From the IMG/VR virus record IMGVR_UViG_2693429557_000019: 30,436 nt of DNA; one strand, given 5' to 3'. The notes beneath the pieces were generated by a model. It did not search any database and was not told the origin of the DNA. It worked only from the letters and a program-made list of their open reading frames with translations. The position numbers and the translations under genes were made by a program. Origin of the DNA: a virus. Lineage: Duplodnaviria; Heunggongvirae; Uroviricota; Caudoviricetes. How positions within the stretch are numbered: position 1 is the first letter of the stretch; each line of letters starts with the position of its first letter. This document shows positions 1,958 to 30,436 of this stretch, one piece after another.

Positions 1958-4405
1958 TTAACCGTCATGCATCATGCTGGCACGGGCGCGCGCACGTTTA
2001 TCCCGCTCGTATTTTTCGAGCGCATCCTGTAACTGGCGGTCAAGCTGTGTCCCCGGTGCAGTACCACCCGTCAGGCTGATGTGATATTCGTTTTTACTCT
2101 GGTCCACATAAGAGCGGCCAGCCGGTGCCGTGACCGGCTGATAAGCCTGATAGCCTGCATAAGAGCTGGTCGCCGGAATATAACCACCGGTGCCATACGT
2201 GGCGGCATGAGTTCTGGCGGCGGTCTGGTCAAGTGTGTCTGACTCTTTGTTGATGACCCCGAGCTTTTCCAGTACCCAGTCAATGCCGCTGCGCAATTTG
2301 TTGAACGCATTAAGCGGCAGCATCAGCGCGTCAGCCAGTGCCTGCCCGAACATGACGCCCGTGTCACGGCAACGGTTCAGGGTGTCCTGGGTGGCTTTGA
2401 CCGGGGCAATCAGGTTTTTAAACCACTGCCACGCAGCCTGTAACTTTTCGCCCAGCCAGTCAAACACCGGTTTCAGTGGCGTGAACAGCTCCCCCACCGG
2501 CGCAAATGCCGCTTTCAGCCCTTCAACCACACCGCCAAAGAATGCGCTGACAGGCTCCCAGTATTTACGGATAAGCAACGCCCCGGCGACAATGGCGGCC
2601 ACCACAGCCACAACCGGCCAGCTAATCGCCCCGATGGCCGTCATAACGGCACTACCAACCGTCGTGAAGATTGCCCCCATTGCGCCTGCTGCCGCGATGA
2701 TGGCATTGATGCCGGTGATAACCGGCCAGGCTACAAGACCAATTGCACCGATGATGCCAGTCAGCGCCAGCGCGCCACCGGCAATGAGGCCAATGGTTGA
2801 CGCCAGTGATTTGTTTTTCTGTACCCAGCCGTCGAGTTTTAACACATACTTTGTGGCCGTCTGCGTGAGCTTACGTAGCGCGCCTTCCTGCTGGTCAAAC
2901 AGGTCTGTCCCCACCGCCTCATAAGCGGACTGAAACTCCTTAAAGTCACCGCCGAGGTTGTCCTGCATGATATTTACCAGCTCTGCGGTCTTCCCGTCTG
3001 AGGCTTTAAACGCAGCGGTCAGTTTGTCCAGCTTTCCGGTTGACGCGGCAGTCATCAGCACAGCGGCGGCTGAGCTGGCCTCCTCCCCGAAAATGGTTTT
3101 CATGTATTCGGCCTGCTGGGCAGTACCGAGCCGGTTTTTCTCAAAGCTGGCCTGCATTTCTTTCAGAATGGTAAATACTGGTCGGGTGTTTCCCTTACTG
3201 TCTGAGGTTTTCACGCCAAGCTCTTTGAGTGCATCCCATGCTTTTCCAGTCGGTGCCTGCAGGCGACTTAACACGGCACGGCTTCCCGTCCCCGCCATTG
3301 AGCCTGTGATTTTTGCATCATGCAGCGCCCCGACCATTGCGGCGGTTTCTTCAATGCTGACACCGGCATTTTTTGCCACTGGTGCGGCATAGGTCAGCGC
3401 ATCGCTCATGCCGTCAAAATCAGCGGCGGTTTTGTTCATCGTCATGGAGAGAACATCCCCGATATGAGCGACCTTATCGTTTGAAAGCTGAAAGGCGGAT
3501 TTCATCCCCATCAGCAGGGCGGCGTTTTCTTCCATTGTGCGGCGGTTCGCCAGCGCCATATTCAGCGTGACCGGCGTTGCCGCCTGAATGGCATCAACAT
3601 CCCCACCCGCTTTCGCAATGATAATCTGTGCACCGGCCGCATCATCCGCTGAGGCGGCGGTGTTGTCACCGAGCTGGCGCGCCTGCTTGCGGAGTGCAGC
3701 CATTTCGGCGGAGTCTTTTGCCACACCGAGCACAGCCTGCAATTCTGAGTTTTTCTGCGCAAACTCATAACCTGGCATCAGCAGCTTAACTCCGGCTATC
3801 GTTCCCGCAGCAGCAATCCCCACACCGGCAGCGCCCACTGAGGCCATATTTCCGGCCAGTTCCTTTCCGGCCTGATAACGCTGTTTGACTGCGTTAAGTT
3901 TTGCCTGTTGCGCACTGACACGCGCCAGCGCGTCACGCTGCCGGTTAAGCTGGGCGGTGGTTTCACTGATACGGTTTTTCAGTCCCTGCTCATCATGTGC
4001 AAGATTGCGGGTATTAATTCCCACAGCGGCCAGTTCCCGCTGCTGGCGTTTAACGGAATCTGTCAGGCGGTTATATTTCGCCTGTAAGTCCTCCGCCGCA
4101 CGCTTTGCGGATTCCAGCACTTTCGCCTGAGCACGGGTCGGGCGTTCGGTGTTTTTAAACTGTGTGGCAAGGGCTTCGGCCTCCTGCCGTGCCTTTTCAA
4201 GTGCATGACCAGTCACGGCGAGCTGTGCACTGGTCTTGCGGAATCCCTCAATACGGGATGCGTGACCGTTCAGCTCGCGCAGTGATTTTTGTGTTTCCCG
4301 GATATCCCCCGACAGCAACTTACTCGCTCTGCGGATGGATTTAAACGGGCGGGACGCCTGGTCAACAGCCCTGAGCAATACCTGTAATTTTACATTGTTA
4401 CTCAT
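1958..4405 (-). CDS. T: Tail tape measure protein T, 815 aa
   Basis: 815-aa ORF with a coiled-coil N-terminal region and Gly/Ala-rich hydrophobic stretches typical of tape measure proteins. Follows E/E' as in P2. Start ATG at 4403-4405 overlaps the E' stop. Confidence 0.9.
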   Translation of the reverse strand: MSNNVKLQVLLRAVDQASRPFKSIRRASKLLSGDIRETQKSLRELNGHASRIEGFRKTSAQLAVTGHALEKARQEAEALATQFKNTERPTRAQAKVLESAKRAAEDLQAKYNRLTDSVKRQQRELAAVGINTRNLAHDEQGLKNRISETTAQLNRQRDALARVSAQQAKLNAVKQRYQAGKELAGNMASVGAAGVGIAAAGTIAGVKLLMPGYEFAQKNSELQAVLGVAKDSAEMAALRKQARQLGDNTAASADDAAGAQIIIAKAGGDVDAIQAATPVTLNMALANRRTMEENAALLMGMKSAFQLSNDKVAHIGDVLSMTMNKTAADFDGMSDALTYAAPVAKNAGVSIEETAAMVGALHDAKITGSMAGTGSRAVLSRLQAPTGKAWDALKELGVKTSDSKGNTRPVFTILKEMQASFEKNRLGTAQQAEYMKTIFGEEASSAAAVLMTAASTGKLDKLTAAFKASDGKTAELVNIMQDNLGGDFKEFQSAYEAVGTDLFDQQEGALRKLTQTATKYVLKLDGWVQKNKSLASTIGLIAGGALALTGIIGAIGLVAWPVITGINAIIAAAGAMGAIFTTVGSAVMTAIGAISWPVVAVVAAIVAGALLIRKYWEPVSAFFGGVVEGLKAAFAPVGELFTPLKPVFDWLGEKLQAAWQWFKNLIAPVKATQDTLNRCRDTGVMFGQALADALMLPLNAFNKLRSGIDWVLEKLGVINKESDTLDQTAARTHAATYGTGGYIPATSSYAGYQAYQPVTAPAGRSYVDQSKNEYHISLTGGTAPGTQLDRQLQDALEKYERDKRARARASMMHDG

Positions 4406-4825
4406 TCGTGTTTCCGCTTCGCCTGAGCGCCTTTTCGCGCCATGTGATGAGTTCGGTCAGGCTCATGGGATACAGTTCTGATGGCGGCCAGTGAAATATC
4501 ACTGCCACATCCGCCATCAGGTCATCGACCGACAGATTTTTCGGAAGCGTCACTGCACCGAGTTCGGCGACAAAAAACCGACCACCTTACCGGCCAGCGC
4601 CACAAGGTCAGGCAGTTCCAGCGCGGCGACTTCCTGCTCGGTCAGCATCGGTGCCGTCATGCGCGGCAGCACCTTAATCAGTGCATCGACTTCTGAGTTT
4701 GCGACCGCAGCCAGACTGACACCGCGCAGCGTCCCCGCACTGGGTTTCATCAGCGTGACCTGTTCGATAACCTGCTCACCACGCTTGACCGGATTGTCCA
4801 GGGTAATCACATTTTCTTTGTTCAT
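4398..4825 (-). CDS. E+E': Tail assembly chaperone E+E' fusion made by -1 programmed ribosomal frameshift (about 142 aa)
   Basis: Hand translation of the minus strand: a -1 slip on T_TTT_TTG (plus-strand 4571..4577) continues VAELGAVTLPKNLSVDDLMADVAVIFHWPPSELYPMSLTELITWREKALRRSGNTNE to a TAA at 4398..4400, which overlaps the T start codon. Total length about 142 aa, the size I recall for P2 E+E'. Confidence 0.75.
4550..4825 (-). CDS. E: Tail assembly chaperone E (zero-frame product), 91 aa
   Basis: 91-aa ORF directly upstream of T and downstream of FII. Ends just after a TTTTTTG heptamer, as in P2 gene E. Confidence 0.85.
   Translation of the reverse strand: MNKENVITLDNPVKRGEQVIEQVTLMKPSAGTLRGVSLAAVANSEVDALIKVLPRMTAPMLTEQEVAALELPDLVALAGKVVGFLSPNSVQ
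4571..4577 (-). promoter_or_regulatory. Slippery heptanucleotide T_TTT_TTG for the E/E' -1 programmed frameshift
   Basis: Plus strand reads caaaaaa, i.e. TTTTTTG on the coding strand, in the X_XXY_YYZ register of the E reading frame. Confidence 0.7.
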
Positions 4826-4881
4826 GGTTTTCTCACTTCTGAATCGGGGTTAACCGGTCAGCCAGGCTGACCGGATGAAAA

Positions 4882-5400
4882 TTACAGGCCGATATTGCGG
4901 CGGTGTTGCTCCAGCCGGTCGACGCCGTTCACCTTCTCAATCATGTTGATGGTGTCGATTTCGACCAGCTCCTTACCGTCCATCGTCAGCCGGAAATAGG
5001 TGCAGACCACGGAGATTTTCGACTCGGTGTCTTCTCCCTGTTTACCCTCGCCGGTGTCGATTTCTTTCTGACGGCCACGCATGACCACCTCTACGGCCAC
5101 CGTTTCGCCGGTATCGTCACGCTGGTAAGAGCCTGCAAAACGAATCGGCACGGCATCCACACCGGTTGCGGCGTAAAGCTCCCAGATAACCGAATCCGGG
5201 AAGCCCCCGAGCGACCACTCCATTGACAGCGCATCGTCATCAAGGCCGAGGTCTACCGGTGCGCTTCCGTTCATCCCCGCACCGCGATAGTTTTCGAGTT
5301 TACGGGTCAGTTTTGGCAGCGTGACGGACTTTGCAACGCCCTGATAGCTGTAGCCGTTCAGAAAGACGTTCATTAACTTGAGTTTGCGCGGCATTGCCAT
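4882..5400 (-). CDS. FII: Major tail tube protein FII, 172 aa
   Basis: 172-aa ORF; size and position (FI-FII-E-T) match P2. Confidence 0.9.
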   Translation of the reverse strand: MAMPRKLKLMNVFLNGYSYQGVAKSVTLPKLTRKLENYRGAGMNGSAPVDLGLDDDALSMEWSLGGFPDSVIWELYAATGVDAVPIRFAGSYQRDDTGETVAVEVVMRGRQKEIDTGEGKQGEDTESKISVVCTYFRLTMDGKELVEIDTINMIEKVNGVDRLEQHRRNIGL

Positions 5401-5412
5401 CGGTCAGGCTCC

Positions 5413-6603
5413 TTAATTGCTGTTAACCGAGGTGACCAGATTTGCCAGGTATTTATCGGTAATACGCTGGCGCAGGGTCAGGTTTTCAAGAGGAGGCACC
5501 GGGGTATAGTCGTAGTCGATATACAGTTTTCCGGCCTTGAGGGTTTCCGCATCGTTGGATTCTTCGCTGAACCAGCAGGTCGCATCCACGATATAGCCGT
5601 TTGTTTTCAGCTCACGGAATTTGGCATTGATGCCGTCAACGATGTCGCGAATCAGCGTTGCGGTGATGGGCTTGTCCACCGCCCACATGTGCGCCTCAGC
5701 CATCGTGTCGGCCAGCACCTGCGCGGTGCGGGTGTAGTTTTCAAAGAGGAACAGCGGGTCATCAGAGCAGGTACGGTTACCCCAGAAGCGGAAACCGTCA
5801 CGGCGAATCAGCGTTGTGACGCCTGACTCGTTAAGCAGGTCAGCATCGGTGCCGGACTCCTGCAAATCCCAGAATACGGACGCGCTGATGCCGGTAACAC
5901 CGTTCACCCCGACGTTGGACAGCGTTTTATGCCAGCCCTGCTCCTGGTCGATTTTAGCGCGCAGACCCAGCGCACGGGCGGTGGCATACGCGGTGGCGGT
6001 GGTACTGGCGACCGTATCCCATGCGAGGAAATCCGGCCAGATGACCATCAGCTCACGCTGGCTGAAATTCTGACGGTAGGCTTTCACCTCGGAAACGGTC
6101 TTACAGCCCCATGCGCTGATATACCCGAAAGCGCGCAGCTTCTGACAGACTGATGCCAGTGCAACAGCCACCTCTTTGGTGTCCAGTCCCGGCACGCCGA
6201 GAATACGCGGTTTAACACCGGTTACCGACTCCGCCGCCAGCAGGGCTTTCAGTCCGGTGTACTGACCGTTTTCGTCGGTGGTGCCGATGATATTGGAAAC
6301 GGTCTGCGCGAGTTTCGTTTCCTCGTCGTCGCCGGTGCCGTCTTCCACACGCACGACAACGGTGACCGGTTTTGACTGGTCGGCGATGGCCTGCAACGAT
6401 GCCGCCAGCGTGCCTTTTTTACCGGCCTTTGCAATTGCGCTCTGCACATTGGTAATCAGCACCGGTTTATTGAGGGGGAAGGTTTCCGCATCCGCATCGC
6501 TGGCCGTGCAGACCATGCCGACAATGGCAGTGGATACGGTGGAAATGACGCGGGTGCCGTCGTTAATCTCCAGCACCTGCACGCCGTGATGATAGTCACT
6601 CAT
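5413..6603 (-). CDS. FI: Contractile tail sheath protein FI, 396 aa
   Basis: 396-aa ORF at the head of the FI-FII-E-T-U-D operon; size matches P2 gpFI. Confidence 0.9.
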   Translation of the reverse strand: MSDYHHGVQVLEINDGTRVISTVSTAIVGMVCTASDADAETFPLNKPVLITNVQSAIAKAGKKGTLAASLQAIADQSKPVTVVVRVEDGTGDDEETKLAQTVSNIIGTTDENGQYTGLKALLAAESVTGVKPRILGVPGLDTKEVAVALASVCQKLRAFGYISAWGCKTVSEVKAYRQNFSQRELMVIWPDFLAWDTVASTTATAYATARALGLRAKIDQEQGWHKTLSNVGVNGVTGISASVFWDLQESGTDADLLNESGVTTLIRRDGFRFWGNRTCSDDPLFLFENYTRTAQVLADTMAEAHMWAVDKPITATLIRDIVDGINAKFRELKTNGYIVDATCWFSEESNDAETLKAGKLYIDYDYTPVPPLENLTLRQRITDKYLANLVTSVNSN

Positions 6604-6726
6604 CCGTTTAACTCCGTGGTTAATGGGTGCAACTATTTTCTGTTGGGCAGTGCATGAGACGCTATTTGACCTGGCTGGTCAGTGGATGAAACAACAGATA
6701 AAGAAAATGCGGGCAATTCGCCCGCA

Positions 6727-6744
6727 TGTCCTGATTTGTACACA
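6727..6744. promoter_or_regulatory. Candidate Ogr-binding dyad TGT-N12-ACA of the late promoter for the FI operon
   Basis: Sequence tgtcctgatttgtacaca has TGT and ACA separated by 12 nt. It lies about 125-140 bp upstream of the FI start on the minus strand, the arrangement described for P2 late promoters. Only the dyad was seen; -10/-35 elements were not mapped. Confidence 0.4.
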
Positions 6745-6942
6745 CTCATTTTCCGACTGACAGTTTACATAGCCCAAACGCTATCAAATCTGACAGCCTG
6801 CTATGAGCGAAAAGCGTTAAATCTCACGATATCTGCTACCGGGAAAAATTTCGATTATCTTCGATGGGAACTTTGATAATGTAGTAAATGCCATTTTCAG
6901 CGATCACTTTTCAAGCGTGTGTAAATGATTAATGTTAAAAAA

Positions 6943-6972
6943 TTGACTTCACTGAAATAAGGTTGCTAGTAT
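6943..6972 (+). promoter_or_regulatory. Candidate sigma70 promoter for the cargo gene (TTGACT-N18-TAGTAT)
   Basis: TTGACT at 6943..6948 and TAGTAT at 6967..6972 in an AT-rich stretch about 40 bp upstream of the cargo ATG. A Shine-Dalgarno-like taaggaa lies about 8 nt before the ATG at 7014. Confidence 0.45.
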
Positions 6973-7013
6973 TTTTGGAGCAACCATTAATGTTTTTTAT
7001 TTAAGGAATGTAA

Positions 7014-8432
7014 ATGACATACGCACTGATTGATAATTCAACTCTAACTGCAGTCCAAAGAATCGAGGGGAAAGTAAAAACAAGATCGAAGGACTCAGTA
7101 GATACAGACATAATAGCATTTGAGAACTATATACAGTCTATTTTGTTCTATGATCACGTTATCGCGGTTGATGATTATATTCCAGAGTACCGTGGGAGTA
7201 GGATTTCAAGTTTCAGAGAGATATTATTTCTTGATAAAGCACAATATGGGTTGGATGAAATTGAAAGTGAAGCAAAAAAAATATCTGATGCATTGAAACC
7301 TAAAATTCGTGGTGGAACATTTGTTAATGACGATTTTAAAAAACTAATTGAACTTCTTCAGACACATATCATATGTACATGGGACATTAGTTCAAGTGTT
7401 TATCATCTAACACTGAAGAACTTATCTGATGGAGGTAAGGAGTTTGAAAAATATGGTAACATTGCTGCTGCCATTTTTTCAGAACTGCGTGATGCTGCTG
7501 AGTCTGGTAATAGAACAAATGGCGATGTTGAACTTCTCGATCGATTTGGCAACCCTATTCGCAAGGGGTACAAAGTTCCCGGAGCAAAATGGGGGGATGG
7601 CACATCTGCTGGTGAAGCATCAGATGCAATCAAAGCATTCGTGGCTTCGCTTGTATGGCTGGCTAATCGGGCAGTATTTTATTCTCTCACAGCTAAGTAC
7701 CTTCAAGCAGATACTTTTTTATATCCATTACGTCAGGCGTATCAACAGACATATTTAAGCCAAAACTGTCAGTATGGTTTTGACTATGCTAAACATATTG
7801 TAGAAAACTTTTCCACTTCGTTAAGTCATGATCTCATTGATATTCATTCTGGTGGTAAAGCTGTAGCAACAGCAACTTCGCTTCCTTTATTTTCGGCATG
7901 GCTCGCAAAAGAAACTGGTGATCCAAGTTGTATTGTTGAAGCTGCTTATAACATAAGGGACAACAACGAATTTGTAAGGGCCCGTGAGAAAATGCGAGAA
8001 ATAAAGCGCTTGTTTGATGAAAATGAATTGCCTCAAGCTAATAAGTCAGTAAGAGCATTGCTTACTGAAGTATCGAAAGAATCAGATTATATTCGAACTA
8101 AGTATGGGCTCAAGACTAGACAAGGTGTACCTGTAACTAAGCTTGTACATGTATACAATACTGTTGCGGCTATTAATTCCCTTCCGAAACTACCGACCTT
8201 TAATTTTAAAGTTAAAGTTCCTGATTTCTTATATGATCTTAAAAAACCCAAGGGGTTTCGTGCTCTCTATCGAAATTTGACTAATGATCTTTCTACTGTG
8301 TGGTCGTTAGGAGAAGCTCGAGATATTCTTGGAAGTAAAGTTGTGATAGATAATCATGCAAGAATTTACAGTCCGAAGCATGAAGAACCGCGTTTCAAAA
8401 ACTCTCATTCCCCATATAAGAGCCCGATGTAG
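7014..8432 (+). CDS. Hypothetical 472-aa protein, AT-rich cargo gene at the FI/G (Z/fun) variable locus
   Basis: Long uninterrupted ORF on the strand opposite both flanking phage operons. Visibly lower GC than flanking phage DNA. Own promoter-like elements and RBS. I recognise no catalytic motif and no resemblance to a P2 protein. Confidence 0.8.
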   Translation: MTYALIDNSTLTAVQRIEGKVKTRSKDSVDTDIIAFENYIQSILFYDHVIAVDDYIPEYRGSRISSFREILFLDKAQYGLDEIESEAKKISDALKPKIRGGTFVNDDFKKLIELLQTHIICTWDISSSVYHLTLKNLSDGGKEFEKYGNIAAAIFSELRDAAESGNRTNGDVELLDRFGNPIRKGYKVPGAKWGDGTSAGEASDAIKAFVASLVWLANRAVFYSLTAKYLQADTFLYPLRQAYQQTYLSQNCQYGFDYAKHIVENFSTSLSHDLIDIHSGGKAVATATSLPLFSAWLAKETGDPSCIVEAAYNIRDNNEFVRAREKMREIKRLFDENELPQANKSVRALLTEVSKESDYIRTKYGLKTRQGVPVTKLVHVYNTVAAINSLPKLPTFNFKVKVPDFLYDLKKPKGFRALYRNLTNDLSTVWSLGEARDILGSKVVIDNHARIYSPKHEEPRFKNSHSPYKSPM

Positions 8433-8546
8433 CTTAAGAAAAAGACACGCCCACCTTGTGCGTCTACTTCTGGCACAGAGCGGACTCTCAGATTAGGCTT
8501 TACTCTGTGCCATAGATATGTAAGCTCACACCAGAGCTCATACAAC

Positions 8547-23235: not shown

Positions 23236-23254
23236 GTGCTTTCCCCGCCTCGCC
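23236..23254. other. cos: cos site: 19-nt cohesive-end sequence (reverse complement of GGCGAGGCGGGGAAAGCAC)
   Basis: Plus strand reads gtgctttccccgcctcgcc, the reverse complement of the P2 left cohesive end as I recall it. Adjacent sequence toward Q also resembles the P2 left-end sequence from memory. Confidence 0.8.
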
Positions 23255-23439
23255 CGCCCGCTTCATGGGGCGGTTTTAATGCAGTTGCATGAACACTCCA
23301 AGAGCACGCCAGCGCTAGTGATAACTAACAATAAAAGCGACTTCTGACGCATGCAAATCCATGCACATGATGGCATTTTTCATGATCTATGCGGTATGCT
23401 ATCCGCTTCAATTTTTAACACTTGTTAAGGGAACTAGAC

Positions 23440-24582
23440 ATGGACATTATTGATTTAAAATCTCAACTAGAAAATGAAGATAATGCCAAGAAAAGAGCAG
23501 AGTTGCTTGCTCAGCTAGAGGTGATAAAGCAAAACGCTGAAGAGCAAATTCGTGCTGAGCAAAAGGATGTGGATTTTGAGACCAAAGAATTTACCGTTGA
23601 GTTATTAGTTAATAAGTATCATAACGGATTAGAGGATGATACTAACGAACTCTTTGTTCCTGATTATCAAAGGGATTTTGTTTGGAGTGAAAAAAGACAA
23701 TCAAAATTGATAGAGTCTTTGATTTTGGGTTTTCCTATACCATATATATTTATAGCAGATGTTCTCTCCGAAGATCCCGATTTAGATGGGCGAATTGAGA
23801 TTGTTGATGGCTCACAACGAGTTAGGACTATACACGCTTTTATCCAAAATGAATTAGTTTTACAAGACCTGAAATCTTTAGACGTCCTTAATGGTTTCAA
23901 ATTCCAAGATTTACCATTATCACGTCAACGTCGTTTCATGAGAATTCCTGTCCGCGTTATAGAATTGAGTTCTAAATGCAATGAAGAAACCCGTAGAGAT
24001 CTTTTTGAGCGTATTAACTCTGGCAGCGATATATTGAAAGATATGGAAGTCCGTAAAGGATCAGAACTTGGTTCAACAAATTTATATACACAGGTTATTA
24101 AGCCATGCTCAACAATACCTAAATTTAAAGAATTAGCACCTTTATCTCAGACTAAAGAAAAACGAGATGAACGGTTAGAATTTACATTAAGATTCTTTGC
24201 CTACGTAGATAAGTACAAGAACTTTGATCATTCCGTACGGGATTTTCTAAATGACTATATGTCAGAAAATCGAGATATAGACGAAACTAAACAAAACTCA
24301 ATGAAACAAGAGTTTGCTAATGTTCTATCTTTTGTTGAAAACTATTTCCCAGCAGGATTCAAGAAAACTATTACTGCAAAATCTACACCTCGAGTTAGAT
24401 TCGAATCTCTCGCTGTTGGCGCAGCACTTGCATTACGTGAAGTCCCTGACCTTGTTCCCAAGAACTTAGATTGGCTAAGCTCAGAAGAATTCAAACGATT
24501 GACCACTTCCGACGGAGCTAATAGTCGCGTGAAGGTAATTGAACGAATTGAATATGTTCGGGATAAATTATTAGAGGATTAA
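23440..24582 (+). CDS. DUF262 / ParB-like domain protein (GmrS-like N-terminal domain, no recognisable HNH/DUF1524 nuclease), 380 aa
   Basis: Contains VPDYQRDFVWS and IVDGSQRVRTI, which fit the (I/V)PxYQRxxxW and DGQQR signatures of the DUF262 ParB/Srx-fold domain. N-terminal coiled-coil. AT-rich. Start taken at the ATG at 23440, 8 nt after an aaggga Shine-Dalgarno (the ORF track begins at a TTG at 23422). Confidence 0.85.
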   Translation: MDIIDLKSQLENEDNAKKRAELLAQLEVIKQNAEEQIRAEQKDVDFETKEFTVELLVNKYHNGLEDDTNELFVPDYQRDFVWSEKRQSKLIESLILGFPIPYIFIADVLSEDPDLDGRIEIVDGSQRVRTIHAFIQNELVLQDLKSLDVLNGFKFQDLPLSRQRRFMRIPVRVIELSSKCNEETRRDLFERINSGSDILKDMEVRKGSELGSTNLYTQVIKPCSTIPKFKELAPLSQTKEKRDERLEFTLRFFAYVDKYKNFDHSVRDFLNDYMSENRDIDETKQNSMKQEFANVLSFVENYFPAGFKKTITAKSTPRVRFESLAVGAALALREVPDLVPKNLDWLSSEEFKRLTTSDGANSRVKVIERIEYVRDKLLED

Positions 24583-24583
24583 C

Positions 24584-25264
24584 ATGGATCGTTTTCGTGA
24601 GGATTTTGACGAAAGGTCAGGAGAGATCTTGGCCTATTTGGATCTTTTGAAATTTATTGAGTATGCCGGTGCAGAACTGATATCAGCTGATGATAAAGAA
24701 CATAAGTTCTCCATTACTGCTCAATCACGAAAAACTCTAAAGGGAGCAGTATATATACTGTTATATAACCTCATTGAATCAACAATGAGAGAAGCTATCT
24801 GCCTTATTCATGAGACTATTTATGATAGAAACGTAGAATTTGACAAACTCAGGAAAAATCTCAGGTCAGAAATATTAAAAAGATTAAAAAATGAATCTGT
24901 AAATGTTGAAAGTTTAGTTAATCACCTTACCAAAGGTATATCTTGCGGTATATCTTATGGCACGTTCAACAAAAAGAAAATATTCTCAGGAAATATTGAT
25001 AGAGAGGAAATCAAAGAAAAATCGAAAATATATGGTTTTTCTACACATTCCGATTACACTCACACTAAACATGGTGAAAAATTAGCCACTGTTAAACAAC
25101 ATCGTAATGATTTATCTCATGGCAATGTATCATTTGCTGAGATTGGAAAAAATGTTTCATATCAGGACTTAGAGAATATTTCATTAGAAGTAATCGCCTA
25201 TCTTGATGCTATCGTGAATAATATAGAGCACTATATAAATAATAATGAATATTTAGAACAATAG
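24584..25264 (+). CDS. Putative HEPN-domain protein (Rx4H motif), 226 aa
   Basis: Translationally coupled to the upstream gene: TAA at 24580..24582 and ATG at 24584, with agagga 6-11 nt upstream. C-terminal region carries HRNDLSHG, fitting the HEPN R-x4-6-H motif. AT-rich. The HEPN call is motif-based inference only. Confidence 0.7.
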   Translation: MDRFREDFDERSGEILAYLDLLKFIEYAGAELISADDKEHKFSITAQSRKTLKGAVYILLYNLIESTMREAICLIHETIYDRNVEFDKLRKNLRSEILKRLKNESVNVESLVNHLTKGISCGISYGTFNKKKIFSGNIDREEIKEKSKIYGFSTHSDYTHTKHGEKLATVKQHRNDLSHGNVSFAEIGKNVSYQDLENISLEVIAYLDAIVNNIEHYINNNEYLEQ

Positions 25265-25270
25265 TTATAA

Positions 25271-25294
25271 GGCCTGTAAAGCAGGCCATTTTAT
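25271..25294. terminator. Candidate bidirectional terminator between the convergent HEPN gene and the methyltransferase gene
   Basis: Stem ggcctg / caggcc with a 5-nt loop, followed by attttat on the plus strand and an A/T-rich stretch on the other side. Sits exactly between the two convergent stop codons. Confidence 0.5.
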
Positions 25295-26319
25295 CATTCT
25301 AAATGGTTCTTGATTGATTGCCCAATTGCTTTTCCTAGTTCCACAGGAACAGCATTACCTATCATTTTCCCAATACTTCTTATAACAAACTTGTTTTTGT
25401 CTTCTACAAAAATATAATCCATCGGGAAAGTTTGCAATAAAGCAGCCTCTCTAAGAGAAATCGCTCTATGCTGTTCTGGATGTCCAAAACGCCCATTCCC
25501 GAAACCATAACAAAGAGTTGTAATTGTTGGACTTGGCTTATCCCAAGACATGCGCCCATATACACTAGCATACCCTTTACCGCTGGATTTCATATGACAA
25601 GCGGCAACCAACTCTTTCGGCCAGTCCTTCCATGTACCACCAGGAACAGAGTGTATAATTCTTTTTTTATTAATCGGATTTAATTTACTGGCTCTATGTA
25701 ATATATCATTTGGATCTGTTTGGCCATCTTCTAATGGAGGAAGATTTCCTATTGCATCTCTAACTGTTTTCAAAATAACATCGTCACGTTTTACTAACTC
25801 AATCGCCCCCAATTTTGAGGCCAACAATACATGACGGGAACGGTTTTGTGGGATTCCATATTCGACACAATCAATCTTAGACGCCCAAACATAATAGCCC
25901 AACTTTAACAATGAATTATAAAAATCATTATAAACTTTATGTTTAGTTACATCAGGAACGTTCTCCATTGTTACGATTTCTGGAGATACTTCGCGAATTA
26001 AACGTTCGAACTCATAAAGAAGAGGCCATTTTTTATCATCAGCCTTATCTTTTCCTTGAGTATATTTTGAAAAAGGTTGGCAAGGTGCGCATCCTGCCAA
26101 TACTTTTACAGACGCATCACCATAAAGCCTCAGCAGTTCCTCTTTTGTTACTTTAGCGATATCTTGCTCAATAAACTTAGATTTATTGTTTCTTTCATAG
26201 GGAAACCTACATTCCCCCTCAAGGTCAATGCCTGCAACGACATCAAGCCCCGCAAGCTGCAAACCATGAGTTAATCCGCCAGCACCACAAAAAAGGTCTA
26301 TCACCTTTACAGTCATCAC
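25294..26319 (-). CDS. DNA (cytosine-5)-methyltransferase, 341 aa
   Basis: Conserved C5-MTase motifs seen in the translation: FCGAGG (motif I, AdoMet binding), GCAPCQPFS (motif IV with catalytic Pro-Cys), ENVPDV (motif VI) and QNRSR (motif VIII). AT-rich. Confidence 0.9.
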   Translation of the reverse strand: MMTVKVIDLFCGAGGLTHGLQLAGLDVVAGIDLEGECRFPYERNNKSKFIEQDIAKVTKEELLRLYGDASVKVLAGCAPCQPFSKYTQGKDKADDKKWPLLYEFERLIREVSPEIVTMENVPDVTKHKVYNDFYNSLLKLGYYVWASKIDCVEYGIPQNRSRHVLLASKLGAIELVKRDDVILKTVRDAIGNLPPLEDGQTDPNDILHRASKLNPINKKRIIHSVPGGTWKDWPKELVAACHMKSSGKGYASVYGRMSWDKPSPTITTLCYGFGNGRFGHPEQHRAISLREAALLQTFPMDYIFVEDKNKFVIRSIGKMIGNAVPVELGKAIGQSIKNHLE

Positions 26320-26402
26320 TCACTCCAAATCTATACGATACTCAGTATACATCCCTTTCTACAAAATCTCGAGGCCTAACTTATAAACTCATATTTATTG
26401 AG

Positions 26403-27896
26403 TTAACGCTTCACTGAGTTTGACTCTAATACTGTTGAGAATCCCGACCACTCATCAGCGAGCGGGTAAGTGAATTTTTTCCCGTCATAATTTACGGTTG
26501 CCCCACGCGCCAGCACCTCAAGCTCCCATCGCTGCGGCCTGATACCGTTCTGAGCAAGGTCAACGCGGATACGGGTAATTTGCATTCGTTCCGACCGGGT
26601 CAGTCTGGCCGATGGCGCTATTTCATGCGGTTTTAACGGGCTTCCGTTTCTTTGCTGACGGTTTGGTCTTCTCAGTCCGTGTTTTAATGCACCTCTGAGC
26701 GCCCTCACAACCTCCGGGTCATTCCATTCGATAACACCGTCATCTACCAGATTAAGCACTGCTGCGGCGTGCTCAGAAGGTGTGGGAGCCGGTAACGAAG
26801 TATCACCACCAGTGAGCTTTCCACAGTTATTGACAGGACTCCGAGGCGCGGCGATGCCGCTTTTTAAAGTCAAAGGCTCAACGACCGGCACTTTCGGAAC
26901 AATGCGCCAGTCCGTCGTTCTGGTGATATGAATATGACGCGCGCCGAGATGCGGCGCGTAAATGCCGACCACTCTCTCGACTTCTTCCTCGTACTCGTTA
27001 ACTTCATCCGACGGACTACGGGCGACCCTGACAGTCTGACAATCGCGCGGGACATTTGCCCCACCCTGCGCGCTGATATACAGCGCAAAATCACCACTGT
27101 CTGCGGCGGCGCGTGCAGCCTCGACGCGCTCGTCAAACTCATCAGCAATGCTGACGCCGCGAGGCAATTTGCGTAGTTCACGGTAAGCCCCCATTGTCGG
27201 CAGGCCAACCGTTTTAAATTGCGGAATGCGCCACGTTGACGCCCATGCGGTAACAGCCGCGGCAGTATCTTTCAGCGGTCTGCCGCTATCGTTATCGAGC
27301 TGCCCATCCAGTGCATAGCCGTCGATATTTTTTGAGATGTATTTCGCGATATACCCCGCAGCACCGCCCCGATTAAGATGTTTTGCCTGAAAACGGTTTC
27401 GCGCAGCTCCTCTTTCGTCGCCATCCTCTTTGAGCGCGTAGCGACGCATGATTTCGATAATCTGGTTACGCTGGCGTGGATTACAAAAAAGCATCATATG
27501 CCAGTGCGGCGTTCCGTCGTGGTGTGGCTCGACGACTCGCAAACCGTAGACCTGTAAATCATTATCCTTGAATGCCGTGCGCATCAGGCTCCAGATACGG
27601 CAGAGATAACGCTGCGCATCCTTTGGATTAAATGCCTCATCGTTCCAGCCGTGATTTAGCTGGACGGTTTTACTTTCGCCTTTTCCAACCTGACGTGTCG
27701 GGTGATACTTTGACGGCGCGGTCAGCGTGATAAACATCCCCACATCACCTTCTGCGGCGGCGTAACGCTCAATACCGGCAATGGTGTTCATCAGCTCCAT
27801 CCGGCGAATTTCAGGATTAGAAATACTGCCCATCACCTTACTGATAAGGTCGATGCGCTCGCCTGTTTCCCTGTTTTCGAGATCACACGATTTAAG
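26403..27896 (-). pseudogene. A: Replication initiation protein A (rolling-circle HUH endonuclease), 5'-truncated at the IS21-family junction
   Basis: ORF carries the HUH motif (TPHWHMMLF) and a Tyr/Lys motif (YIAKYISKN) of Rep-type nickases. It is 526 aa against about 761 aa that I recall for P2 gpA. The first roughly 28 codons of the ORF-track ORF (to 27983) are read through IS-end tandem repeats and are not genuine gene A sequence. Junction placed near 27897 from memory of the P2 gpA sequence. Confidence 0.7.
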
Positions 27897-27910
27897 ATGC
27901 AAAATGGCAT

Positions 27911-28025
27911 CTGAATCGATCGCAGTTTGGCATTCGAATCGATCATGATTTGGCATCCATCTCCGATCACAGTTTGGCATCACAATCGATCACGATTTGG
28001 CATACTTCCGATCATTGATTGGAAT
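27911..28025. repeat. Five tandem 22-24 bp direct repeats (consensus about cgatcaNNRtttggcat), probable multiple terminal repeats of the IS21-family left end
   Basis: Units end in ttggcat at 27933, 27956, 27980 and 28003, and in ttggaat at 28025. A diverged sixth copy (aaaatggcat) ends at 27910. The array lies immediately upstream of istA. Confidence 0.6.
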
Positions 28026-28098
28026 TCGCCAGTCACTCCGGGAATTAACTCTTTTCACCACAGTCTCCATTGCCGTGTTTAAACCAGTGGAGACGTCA

Positions 28099-29664
28099 AT
28101 GTCCAAAAAGAGAAAATCCAGGAGCACTATGGAAACTTGTTTTAAGATCCTTCAGCTCAAGTTCGATAAGAAGCTGACTAACCGTTGTATCGGACTGACG
28201 TTACACATCAGCGCCTCAACCGTTTTTGAGGTTCTTGCCCGCTTCAAAGCCTCTTCTCTGTCATGGCCATTACCTGCGGATATATCCCATGACACGCTGG
28301 AGAAACTCATTTTCCCGCCCAAAGACACCTCTGCGTCAGAGCTTGTTATGCCTGACATGCTGTACTTCGATACGGAAATGAGAAAACCTGGCGTGACGCG
28401 CCAACTGTTGTGGATGGAATACAAGGCACAGGCGGGTGACAAAGCGATGGGATACTCACACTTCTGCCGTTGCTACCGGAAGTGGAAAAAAACGCGACGC
28501 CTCTCCATGCGACAGGAGCATCGTGCTGGCGAAAAGCTCTTTATCGACTTCTGTGGTCCTACGGTCCCTGTTATTAATCCGGACACCGGAGAGATACGCC
28601 GCGTGGCAATCTTCGTGGCTGTAATGGGGGCGTCCAACTATACCTATGTTGAAGCGTGCGAAGGTCAGGACATGATGTCATGGTTAAATGCCCACAGCCG
28701 TTGCCTGACCTTCCTGGGCGGCGTACCGAAGCTGCTCATCCCCGATAACCTCAGAAGCGCAGTGAAAAAAGCCGATCGCTATGAGCCTGTCATCAACGAC
28801 AGTTATCAGGCGCTGGCTGAGCACTATGGCACGGTTATTATCCCGGCCCGCCCGCGCAAACCTAAAGATAAACCAAAAGCAGAAAACGGCGTCCTCATCG
28901 TCGAGCGATGGCTTCTTGCCCGCATCCGTAATGAAACCTTCCACACGCTCAGGGCGCTGAATGCACGCCTTCGGGAGTTGCTGACGGACATGAATAACCG
29001 ACCAATGAAGGGATACGGTAATCAAACCCGCGCAGAACGCTTCCGCATGCTGGATGCACCAGCACTCTCTCCGCTGCCTCTGGAGCCTTATGAATACACG
29101 GAATACAAAGCCGTGAAGGTTGGCCCTGACTACCACGTTGAATATGCCCGTCACTGGTACTCCGTTCCACACGAACTGGTCGGTCAGCGTCTGTCACTGA
29201 AGGTGGGGCAGTCGGTGGTACAGCTCTGGCACAAGGGGCAGTGTGTGGCGCAACATCCGCGCAGCACACATGAATATAAACACACAACCAATCCGCTTCA
29301 CATGCCAGAACGCCACCGGCGGCATGGGACATGGACACCGGAACGCCTTATCGAGCAGGGAAACCGTACAGGTCCGTCCACAGGCCGGGTGGTTGAATCC
29401 ATGCTGAAAGCCAAACCCCATCCGGAGCTGGCTTACCGTGCAGTCCTGGGTCTGCTGGCACTTCAGAAAAAATACGGCCCGGAACGGCTGGAAAAGGCCT
29501 GTTACGTTGCCCTGCACTATAACGCCCCGGACAGACGCTTTATCGACAATCTGCTGCGTCATCATCGGGATAACGTTGAGCTTCCGTTATCCCGCCAGGG
29601 CGAACAACATCCGGCATATGCTTCAGAGCATGAAAACCTGCGTGGTCCTGGCTACTACCACTGA
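28099..29664 (+). CDS. istA: IS21-family transposase IstA (DDE), about 521 aa
   Basis: N-terminal basic/HTH-like region. Candidate DDE residues in FIDFCG, LLIPDN and AENGVLIVERW. Followed 16 nt later by istB. Start taken at the first ATG (MSKKRKS) of the ORF-track ORF, which begins at a TTG at 27997. Confidence 0.85.
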   Translation: MSKKRKSRSTMETCFKILQLKFDKKLTNRCIGLTLHISASTVFEVLARFKASSLSWPLPADISHDTLEKLIFPPKDTSASELVMPDMLYFDTEMRKPGVTRQLLWMEYKAQAGDKAMGYSHFCRCYRKWKKTRRLSMRQEHRAGEKLFIDFCGPTVPVINPDTGEIRRVAIFVAVMGASNYTYVEACEGQDMMSWLNAHSRCLTFLGGVPKLLIPDNLRSAVKKADRYEPVINDSYQALAEHYGTVIIPARPRKPKDKPKAENGVLIVERWLLARIRNETFHTLRALNARLRELLTDMNNRPMKGYGNQTRAERFRMLDAPALSPLPLEPYEYTEYKAVKVGPDYHVEYARHWYSVPHELVGQRLSLKVGQSVVQLWHKGQCVAQHPRSTHEYKHTTNPLHMPERHRRHGTWTPERLIEQGNRTGPSTGRVVESMLKAKPHPELAYRAVLGLLALQKKYGPERLEKACYVALHYNAPDRRFIDNLLRHHRDNVELPLSRQGEQHPAYASEHENLRGPGYYH

Positions 29665-29680
29665 CAGAAGGAACAACCGT

Positions 29681-30436
29681 ATGAGTGATAATCTGTTAAA
29701 CAAACTGACCCAACTGAAACTCCCGGCGATGGCCGGGAGCCTGATACGGCAACGGGAAACGCCTCAGACTTACGACGAACTGTCGTTCGAGGAAAGGCTG
29801 ACACTGCTGGTTGATGACGAGCTTCTGAGCAGAGAAAACAGTCGTGTGGCACGGTTGAGAAAAAATGCCTGCCTGAAATATCAGGCAACACCGGAAGGGC
29901 TGCGTTATCCGGCCTCAAGAGGTCTGCGGGCTGAACAGATGAGGGAACTGCTGAACGGCCACTACATAATCCACAGGAAAAACCTACTGATAACCGGTCC
30001 GACAGGATGCGGTAAGAGCTGGATAGCCAATGCGCTGGGCGAACAGGCATGTCGACAGAAATACAGCGTCCGGTACTGTAGAACCGGGCGATTACTGGAA
30101 CAGTTGGCTCAGGGACGTGTTGATGGCAGTTGGCTGAAATATCTGAAACAGTTGCAAAAAATACAGGTTCTAATCCTGGACGATCTGGGGCTGGAACAGT
30201 TAAGTAACGCCCAGTGTAATGACCTTCTGGAGATCACAGAGGATCGTTACGGACAAAGCAGCACGATAGTGGTAAGCCAGTTCCCGGTAGATAAATGGCA
30301 TGGTCTGATGGAGAACCCAACAACAGCAGATGCCATCCTGGACAGACTGGTACATAACTCACACAGAGTGGTCCTTCAGGGAGAGTCCCTGAGGAAAAAT
30401 CCCCCGACAGTGGAAAGCAGCGAAAAAACGAGTTAA
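29681..30436 (+). CDS. istB: IS21-family ATP-binding helper protein IstB, 251 aa
   Basis: Walker A motif GPTGCGKS and Walker B-like VLILDDLG. Start ATG at 29681 preceded by gaaggaa. Stop TAA is the last 3 nt of the window. Confidence 0.9.
   Translation: MSDNLLNKLTQLKLPAMAGSLIRQRETPQTYDELSFEERLTLLVDDELLSRENSRVARLRKNACLKYQATPEGLRYPASRGLRAEQMRELLNGHYIIHRKNLLITGPTGCGKSWIANALGEQACRQKYSVRYCRTGRLLEQLAQGRVDGSWLKYLKQLQKIQVLILDDLGLEQLSNAQCNDLLEITEDRYGQSSTIVVSQFPVDKWHGLMENPTTADAILDRLVHNSHRVVLQGESLRKNPPTVESSEKTS

Follow-up and report, generated by a model that had tools for sequence, protein, structure and literature searches.

A DUF262–HEPN gene pair with a dedicated C5 cytosine methyltransferase in the accessory island of a P2-like prophage

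Genes and features of the island

The DNA analyzed here is a stretch of 30,436 nucleotides (nt) from a virus of the Caudoviricetes (IMG/VR record IMGVR_UViG_2693429557_000019), which is called the window below. An AT-rich accessory island of ~3.1 kb at positions 23284..26422, between a P2-type cos site and gene A, carries three genes: gene 1 for a DUF262 protein, gene 2 for a HEPN protein, and a convergent gene for a C5 cytosine DNA methyltransferase. The left landmark of this hotspot is the cos site itself, 19 nt at 23236..23254, whose reverse complement is identical to the annotated cosR of NC_001895 (GGCGAGGCGGGGAAAGCAC). In a blastn comparison with P2, homology stops at 23283 and restarts at 26423 within gene A, and the island therefore substitutes for orf91-tin-old of P2. 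The G+C content is 0.33–0.40 over about 23500..26500 and about 0.55 in the flanks.

Gene 1 (23440..24582, plus strand) begins with ATG and encodes a protein of 380 amino acids (aa), in which a ParB/Srx-fold DUF262 nucleotide-triphosphatase (NTPase) domain is followed by a conserved helical C-terminal domain like the 'ParBDB' domain of NsnA. An alternative upstream start, TTG, is found at 23422. The protein matches Pfam GmrSD_N with 91.9 bits (cutoff 33.2; 7.7e-26), and the QR, DGxQR, and FxxxN motifs are all intact. The QR motif of DUF262, as defined in PMC12137116, appears as PDYQR at 23659..23673 (plus strand) within VPDYQRDFVWS. The nucleotide-phosphate-binding motif DGxQR, whose role is described in PMC12065111 and PMC10952713, appears as DGSQR at 23806..23820 on the same strand. 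Residues P74, D75, Y76, and R78 of the former and D123–R127 of the latter are invariant in an alignment of gene 1 with 26 homologues (alignment A2), and FxxxN is conserved and present as FERIN. The best PADLOC match is NsnA (1.6e-54; residues 25–374 against model positions 23–376 of 385). PD-T4-2_A (PDLC04027) is matched at 2.4e-35 with 120 bits (residues 73–372 against 55–356 of 363). A Foldseek search of the gene-1 model against the PDB returned no significant match, and a profile search of PDB sequences returned only marginal DUF262 matches.

No DUF1524/HNH His-Me nuclease domain was found in gene 1 or in its partner by Pfam, alignment, and structural searches, and canonical GmrSD was rejected for gene 1 on this ground. 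The presence or absence of a nuclease bears on one alternative explanation of the locus, classical restriction-modification (R-M) with a backup. Gene 1 would then be a DNase (a 'ParB nuclease') that cuts unmethylated DNA, and the HEPN protein would be a PrrC-like suicide module, silenced by the R-M proteins and freed when a phage neutralizes restriction (Anantharaman et al. 2013). In line with this explanation, residues 72–255 (the DUF262 region) give a weak match of 9e-6 to PADLOC REase_II PDLC03418, a 372-position 'Type II restriction enzyme' model, and the weak matches of gene 1 and its relatives to this model range from 9e-6 to 1e-7. These matches imply that some catalogued restriction enzyme carries a DUF262 domain of similar size. 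However, no recognized nuclease fold or metal-binding His/Cys motif was found in gene 1, and in the characterized relatives the DUF262 domain is an NTPase and sensor, with cleavage carried out by a separate DUF1524 domain.

Gene 2 (24584..25264, plus strand) encodes a 226-aa HEPN protein of the MAE_28990 family. Its junction with gene 1 reads GAT TAA C ATG, with a gap of 1 nt, and the Shine–Dalgarno sequence GAGGA is located 8 nt upstream of the gene-2 ATG, within the end of gene 1. From this arrangement, translational coupling of gene 2 to gene 1 is proposed. The protein is a full-length member of Pfam HEPN_MAE_28990 (PF18737; 102.2 bits, cutoff 26.8) and also matches Pfam PF18735. The Rx4H catalytic motif appears as RNDLSH at residues 174–179 of 226 (25103..25120, plus strand). 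Conservation of R174, N175, D176, L177, and H179 reaches at least 90% in an alignment with 27 homologues (alignment A1), and RN[DAN]L[AS]H was found in every extra locus looked at. No PADLOC model, PD-T4-2_B included, matched gene 2 at E ≤ 1; PADLOC v2 is without a model for this component of the cassette.

A sequence-only reading of the window had described genes 1 and 2 as an AT-rich pair separated by 1 nt and located between cos and gene A, where P2 carries old and tin. It had further assigned gene 1 to DUF262 from VPDYQRDFVWS and DGSQR, had seen no HNH/DUF1524 nuclease motif and hence no canonical GmrSD, and had taken RNDLSH for a HEPN motif. The breakpoints, profile scores, alignments, and structure searches described above bear out each of these assignments. 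The description of the locus as a two-gene system did not survive, since the third gene of the conserved unit had been missed.

This third gene (25294..26319, minus strand) is convergent with gene 2 and encodes a C5 cytosine DNA methyltransferase of 341 aa; the true start is probably the ATG at 26316. The protein matches Pfam DNA_methylase (PF00145) over its full length at 3.4e-58 and TIGR00675 (dcm) at 1.5e-37. FCGAGG, PCQ, ENV, QNRSR, and GNAV are seen in the translation, and catalytic motifs I, IV, VI, VIII, and X are complete. The PDB matches (HaeIII, HhaI, and DNMT1) span the conserved catalytic regions only. A 340-aa protein identical to the methyltransferase of the window is found on 754 contigs, and one source names Shigella sonnei. 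The methyltransferase is the best-conserved of the three components, and its most conserved stretch (residues about 221–300) coincides in part with the region in which such enzymes usually differ according to target specificity. Because this usually variable region is the best-conserved part of the enzyme across phyla, the alignment suggests that the methyltransferases of the cassette have one methylation motif in common.

Measured against two diverged copies, the ratio of nonsynonymous to synonymous substitution rates (dN/dS) is 0.04–0.08 for all three island genes and 0.08 for the methyltransferase, which indicates strong purifying selection. Because of these ratios and of Pfam scores far over the thresholds, the three genes are not chance open reading frames (ORFs). 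The names given to them by the NCBI annotation pipeline are already correct. Gene 2 and the methyltransferase gene are separated by a G+C-rich hairpin at 25271..25287 (GGCCTGTAAAGCAGGCC, then ATTTTAT on the plus strand), which forms a terminator-like site for gene 2 and is possibly bidirectional. A promoter scan of the sequence upstream of gene 1 gave no convincing sigma-70 site, with a count below the shuffle expectation.

Linkage of the three genes and their genomic contexts

Species-representative genomes were scanned with the HEPN alignment. Relatives turned up in 474 species, and the analysis covered the 80 best loci. An ortholog of gene 1 is located directly upstream of the HEPN gene in all 80 of these loci from other species. 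In 68 of the 69 full-length pairs, the two genes are separated by −8 to +6 nt. A C5 methyltransferase orthologous to that of the window (E about 1e-120) adjoins the pair in 36 of 81 loci, across four phyla. Three arrangements of the methyltransferase gene are found: it is mostly convergent, but it shares the strand of the pair in one Bacteroidales genome, where it lies downstream of the pair, and in two Acidobacteria, where it lies upstream. The pairwise divergence of gene 1 correlates with that of the methyltransferase (r = 0.96 over 630 pairs). In the tree of gene 1, possession of the methyltransferase is the deep state and extends over several phyla. A search of 113 pooled neighbor ORFs of the methyltransferase-positive loci revealed no fourth component that is conserved.

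The linkage was also sampled independently from the methyltransferase side, using relatives at 60–71% identity from Escherichia coli, Pseudomonas aeruginosa, Halomonas, and Shewanella. A MAE_28990 HEPN gene lies beside the methyltransferase in four of four, and a complete DUF262 gene is present in three of four. These relatives constitute a second triad subfamily, whose identity to the genes of the window is about 45% for gene 1, about 35% for gene 2, and 59–71% for the methyltransferase. Of the enterobacterial instances examined, all have the methyltransferase with the pair. Three genes, one of them for a dedicated C5 methyltransferase, make up the conserved unit of this lineage.

The cassette was found in 9 of 5,426 complete E. 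coli genomes with all three genes each time, and all nine copies are located between the P2 portal and replication genes. The methyltransferase is present in the eight Klebsiella and Salmonella places displayed. The Salmonella and Tatumella triads occupy the same P2 hotspot. At one Salmonella locus (L093), a 585-aa reverse-transcriptase gene (RVT_1; 3793..5550) separates the triad from the portal gene, which shows that the hotspot can house two accessory modules side by side. At another (L092), an insertion sequence (IS) element is found between the HEPN and methyltransferase genes. The Klebsiella triad is part of a lambdoid prophage, where it is flanked on one side by the replication genes and on the other by the Q-antiterminator/RusA region. 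Moraxella phages and the P2-like phage P2_4B2 carry further triads, and the Halomonas relative is in a P2-like prophage. The Shewanella relative lies in an island, with a BcnI-type R-M system and an OLD-like ATPase as neighbors. The P. aeruginosa relative (L098) is in an integrase island, with a Vsr gene (5528..5938) between the methyltransferase and HEPN genes; the gene upstream of its HEPN gene is short (158 aa, no Pfam match) and near the contig end. From its occurrence in unrelated phages and islands, the cassette is a mobile three-gene unit.

Phage P2_4B2 (NC_049387; L082, 2021..3041) and three E. coli loci (L094–L096) carry the second triad subfamily in the same P2 hotspot. Their identity to the window is 71–76% for the methyltransferase, 45% for the DUF262 protein, and 34% for the HEPN protein; the sensor/effector pair has therefore diverged far more than the methylase or was exchanged. 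The 234-aa 'DNA methyltransferase' of P2_4B2 was considered as a member of another methylase family and rejected. It belongs to the same C5 family and is broken in two by a frameshift at eight consecutive G residues, and an intact 375-aa version of the P2_4B2-type methylase is present in E. coli isolates.

A methylase-less pair was observed in a P2-like phage of Klebsiella, ST16-OXA48phi5.4 (L084, 2863..4766), at a different accessory hotspot, between tail-fiber and tail genes. It encodes a 407-aa NsnA-like DUF262 protein and a 220-aa RiboL-PSP-type HEPN protein. The phage was rejected as an exemplar of PD-T4-2 (described below), with only 118 bits against PD-T4-2_A; it is another DUF262 plus RiboL-PSP-HEPN relative.

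Two further features of the window lie outside the island. Homology to P2 gene A breaks off abruptly at 27897, and the A ORF is 526 aa here versus 761 in P2. A GATCxxxxTTTGGCAT-like motif follows in at least four direct copies, and after these an IS21-family transposase (rve plus a Mu-transposase C-terminal domain) at 27997..29664 and an IstB helper at 29438..30436 that runs off the end of the window. The replication gene of the prophage is thus disrupted, and the prophage is probably defective. A second AT-rich island (6604..8546; G+C content 0.35–0.43) is located between the tail sheath and tail-fiber assembly genes, at the position of the Z/fun accessory locus of P2. Its single ORF (7014..8432, plus strand; 472 aa) has no Pfam match and no PADLOC match and is a candidate orphan defense gene at this second P2 hotspot.

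Proposed function and alternatives

The cassette is moderately likely to be a prophage-borne anti-phage defense that combines a DNA-sensing NTPase switch, a HEPN ribonuclease (RNase), and a self-marking methylase. It would be self-contained, horizontally mobile, and carried as prophage cargo, with a core of the same kind as PD-T4-2. In the proposed mechanism, the ParB/DUF262 NTPase of gene 1, with its putative DNA-binding helical domain, would serve as sensor and switch on DNA. Gene 2 would be produced in fixed proportion to gene 1 through translational coupling, and the two proteins may form a complex; the HEPN RNase would be kept inactive until a signal from gene 1 is received. Once activated, it would cleave RNA, most likely tRNA or mRNA, and phage growth would be halted. 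The convergent methyltransferase would put a specific 5-methylcytosine (5mC) mark on the resident DNA, and the sensor could use this mark to avoid or calibrate self-activation.

There are precedents for both halves of this scheme. DUF262 proteins are readers of self-written DNA marks in SspE and in the Dnd-associated DUF262 protein, and the HEPN tRNase DARNA is switched on by DNA binding. The defense reading is supported by the protection against T4 that is provided by PD-T4-2, an experimentally validated relative. Also in its favor are the intact DUF262 and HEPN motifs, the constant order of genes 1 and 2, the linkage of the methyltransferase, the low dN/dS ratios, and the hotspot and prophage contexts. 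In P. aeruginosa, a gene for Vsr, a mismatch endonuclease of very-short-patch repair, adjoins the methyltransferase, as would be expected next to an active writer of genomic 5mC; as with Dcm and Vsr, this neighbor suggests a methylase that is active on the genome. A more specific version, an epigenetic 'restriction' with an RNA-acting arm, is put forward tentatively and is on the doubtful side. In this version a fixed 5mC motif would be written, the DUF262 NTPase would read it, and the HEPN RNase would be released, while the DNA would remain uncut. If true, the cassette would be a 5mC counterpart of the phosphorothioate-sensing SspE/Dnd systems, with an abortive, RNA-directed output.

Several points weigh against a defense unit with a self-marking methylase. 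Loci without the methyltransferase fall, in essence, into a single clade of 34 cyanobacterial species in which the pair lies beside housekeeping genes, namely those for aconitase B or ClpB. (The recurrent large upstream ORF of these methyltransferase-less loci was considered as an alternative methylase and rejected; it is aconitase B or ClpB and reflects local synteny only.) Sporadic methyltransferase-less cases also occur: one locus retains a methyltransferase fragment (L015), one has none (L016), and at one the contig ends (L005). The pair is intact next to the decayed methyltransferase of L015, and it is intact in phage P2_4B2 beside the frameshifted methyltransferase, although the frameshift, in the run of eight G residues, may be a sequencing error. 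From these intact pairs without a working adjacent methylase, it follows that the methylase is not strictly needed in cis and that the pair is not obligately lethal without it. PD-T4-2 was reported without a methyltransferase and acts on T4, whose DNA is hypermodified. Finally, a literature search yielded only one paper that mentions MAE_28990, and it turned up no experiments on this family or on pairs with a linked methylase.

The same intact pairs count against classical R-M with a backup, for in a usual R-M system the restriction gene alone is lethal. The tight linkage of the methyltransferase to the pair speaks for that explanation, and the enzyme has the complete catalytic motifs required of the methyltransferase of a Type II R-M system. 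With the properties of gene 1 described above also taken into account, we consider it unlikely.

Another alternative is that two independent modules travel together, a PD-T4-2-like pair that senses foreign (e.g., hypermodified) DNA and an orphan phage methyltransferase that acts against host restriction. Orphan methylases encoded by phages are common. The activity of PD-T4-2 on T4 without a described methylase, the existence of the methyltransferase-less clade, and the IS element that splits the HEPN and methyltransferase genes in Salmonella are all in keeping with this explanation, and DUF262 proteins can read foreign modifications, as GmrSD, BrxU, and GrwAB show. However, the methyltransferase lineage is dedicated to the pair in all four lineages sampled from the methyltransferase side, the linkage is kept through three gene orders and four phyla and also in non-phage chromosomal contexts, and gene 1 and the methyltransferase co-diverge. 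Independent modules are therefore judged improbable.

The third alternative is an addiction (toxin–antitoxin-like) module that stabilizes the prophage or island, with the HEPN protein as toxin and the DUF262 protein as antitoxin. No nucleotidyltransferase (MNT) domain was detected in the island using Pfam and PADLOC, and no other known antitoxin domain was found. For an antitoxin, a 380-aa NTPase with conserved catalytic motifs would be unusual; of the relatives that have been tested, the closest is a defense system, and the location is a defense hotspot. This alternative is very unlikely.

DUF262 proteins are recurring sensors in bacterial immunity, and the cassette bears on how the versions without a nuclease (PD-T4-2, Menshen, and Dazbog) sense infection and signal. 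It is small (three genes, 3.1 kb) and widespread, and prophages of Shigella/E. coli, Salmonella, and Klebsiella commonly carry it. With its dedicated methyltransferase, the cassette would allow a direct experimental look at whether an RNase can be gated by a DUF262 sensor that reads a self-written mark. If this proves true, the logic of restriction-modification would be joined to abortive infection; if the methylase is independent, the locus would be one more PD-T4-2-like pair.

Comparison with known systems

The sequence-only reading had implied that the module is new. This implication falls away, since an operon of HEPN, ParB, and methylase genes was recorded in 2013 and a DUF262 plus HEPN system, PD-T4-2, was validated against T4 in 2022. 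The reading had also given identity with an already named system as grounds for refutation. The locus comes close to this, as gene 1 matches the NsnA and PD-T4-2_A models over their full length, although gene 2 matches no PADLOC model.

The 2013 operon is given in Table 1 of Anantharaman et al. 2013 (Biol Direct 8:15), where the MAE_28990 HEPN family is listed with ParB and DNA methylase genes. The related RiboL-PSP-HEPN family is given there as in 'operon with ParB', and the HEPN proteins linked to R-M systems are proposed to be PrrC-like. With its PF18737 HEPN domain, Rx4H motif, and adjacent ParB/DUF262 and methylase genes, the locus of the window shows no structural difference from this operon and is an instance of it. 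The ParB protein is labeled a nuclease in the 2013 paper, which the analysis of gene 1 does not support. The literature search found no named system that matches the triad.

PD-T4-2 ('DUF262, HEPN') is a two-gene system from E. coli ECOR65 that protects K-12 against T4 and whose deletion sensitizes the native strain (Vassallo et al. 2022; PMC9519451). HHpred analysis by the authors identified DUF262/DndB/ParBc in PD-T4-2A and HEPN_RiboL-PSP (97.8%) and HEPN_MAE_28990 (96.9%) in PD-T4-2B, a protein of about 165 aa (PMC9519451). The comparison with the window was made through the PADLOC models and this HHpred table, and from the family matches both window proteins are remote homologues of the validated system. 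In both cases a DUF262/DndB/ParB-like gene is followed by a HEPN gene of the RiboL-PSP/MAE_28990 clade in a two-gene operon of E. coli. Gene 1 matches PD-T4-2_A over the full length, as a more distant homologue than NsnA, and the HHpred families of PD-T4-2B, PF18735 and PF18737, are the two Pfam families that gene 2 matches. The differences are the length of the HEPN protein (about 165 versus 226 aa), the failure of the PD-T4-2_B model to detect gene 2, and the methyltransferase.

Menshen (NsnABC) resembles the cassette in the architecture of NsnA, in which a ParB-DUF262 domain is followed by the 'ParBDB' helical domain, and in a proposed logic that places a DNA-sensing NsnA upstream of an RNase effector. 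Unlike Menshen, the window is without the ABC ATPase NsnB and the inPIN-nuclease NsnC, the HEPN protein would be coupled directly to the sensor, and a methyltransferase is present. Menshen was rejected as an identification, with NsnB and NsnC missing downstream and no ATPase conserved near the family.

GmrSD, BrxU, SspE, and the Dnd-associated DUF262 protein likewise have a DUF262 NTPase domain with QR, DGxQR, and FxxxN, with a helical domain after it; the best matches in structure are BrxU and SspE. Host DNA is marked by the partner enzymes of SspE and of the Dnd-associated protein, and the cassette is proposed to follow this logic. The cassette differs from this group in having no DUF1524/His-Me nuclease and a separate HEPN protein as its effector. 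Its mark would be 5mC rather than phosphorothioate, and its target is probably RNA rather than DNA; neither sspABCD nor dndABCDE was found in the three-gene island or among the pooled neighbors of the family.

PrrC-EcoprrI and DARNA (PD-T7-3) are gated HEPN RNases, PrrC being controlled by the R-M complex and DARNA by DNA binding. Both are precedents for a link from the sensing of DNA or its modification to the cutting of RNA. Their HEPN families and partners are unrelated to those of the cassette, DARNA is a single protein, and PrrC is found within a Type I R-M system. The locus of the window is thus a variant of a kind of system known since 2013 and 2022, in which a PD-T4-2-like DUF262–HEPN core is combined with a dedicated C5 methyltransferase; this combination had been recorded computationally in 2013.

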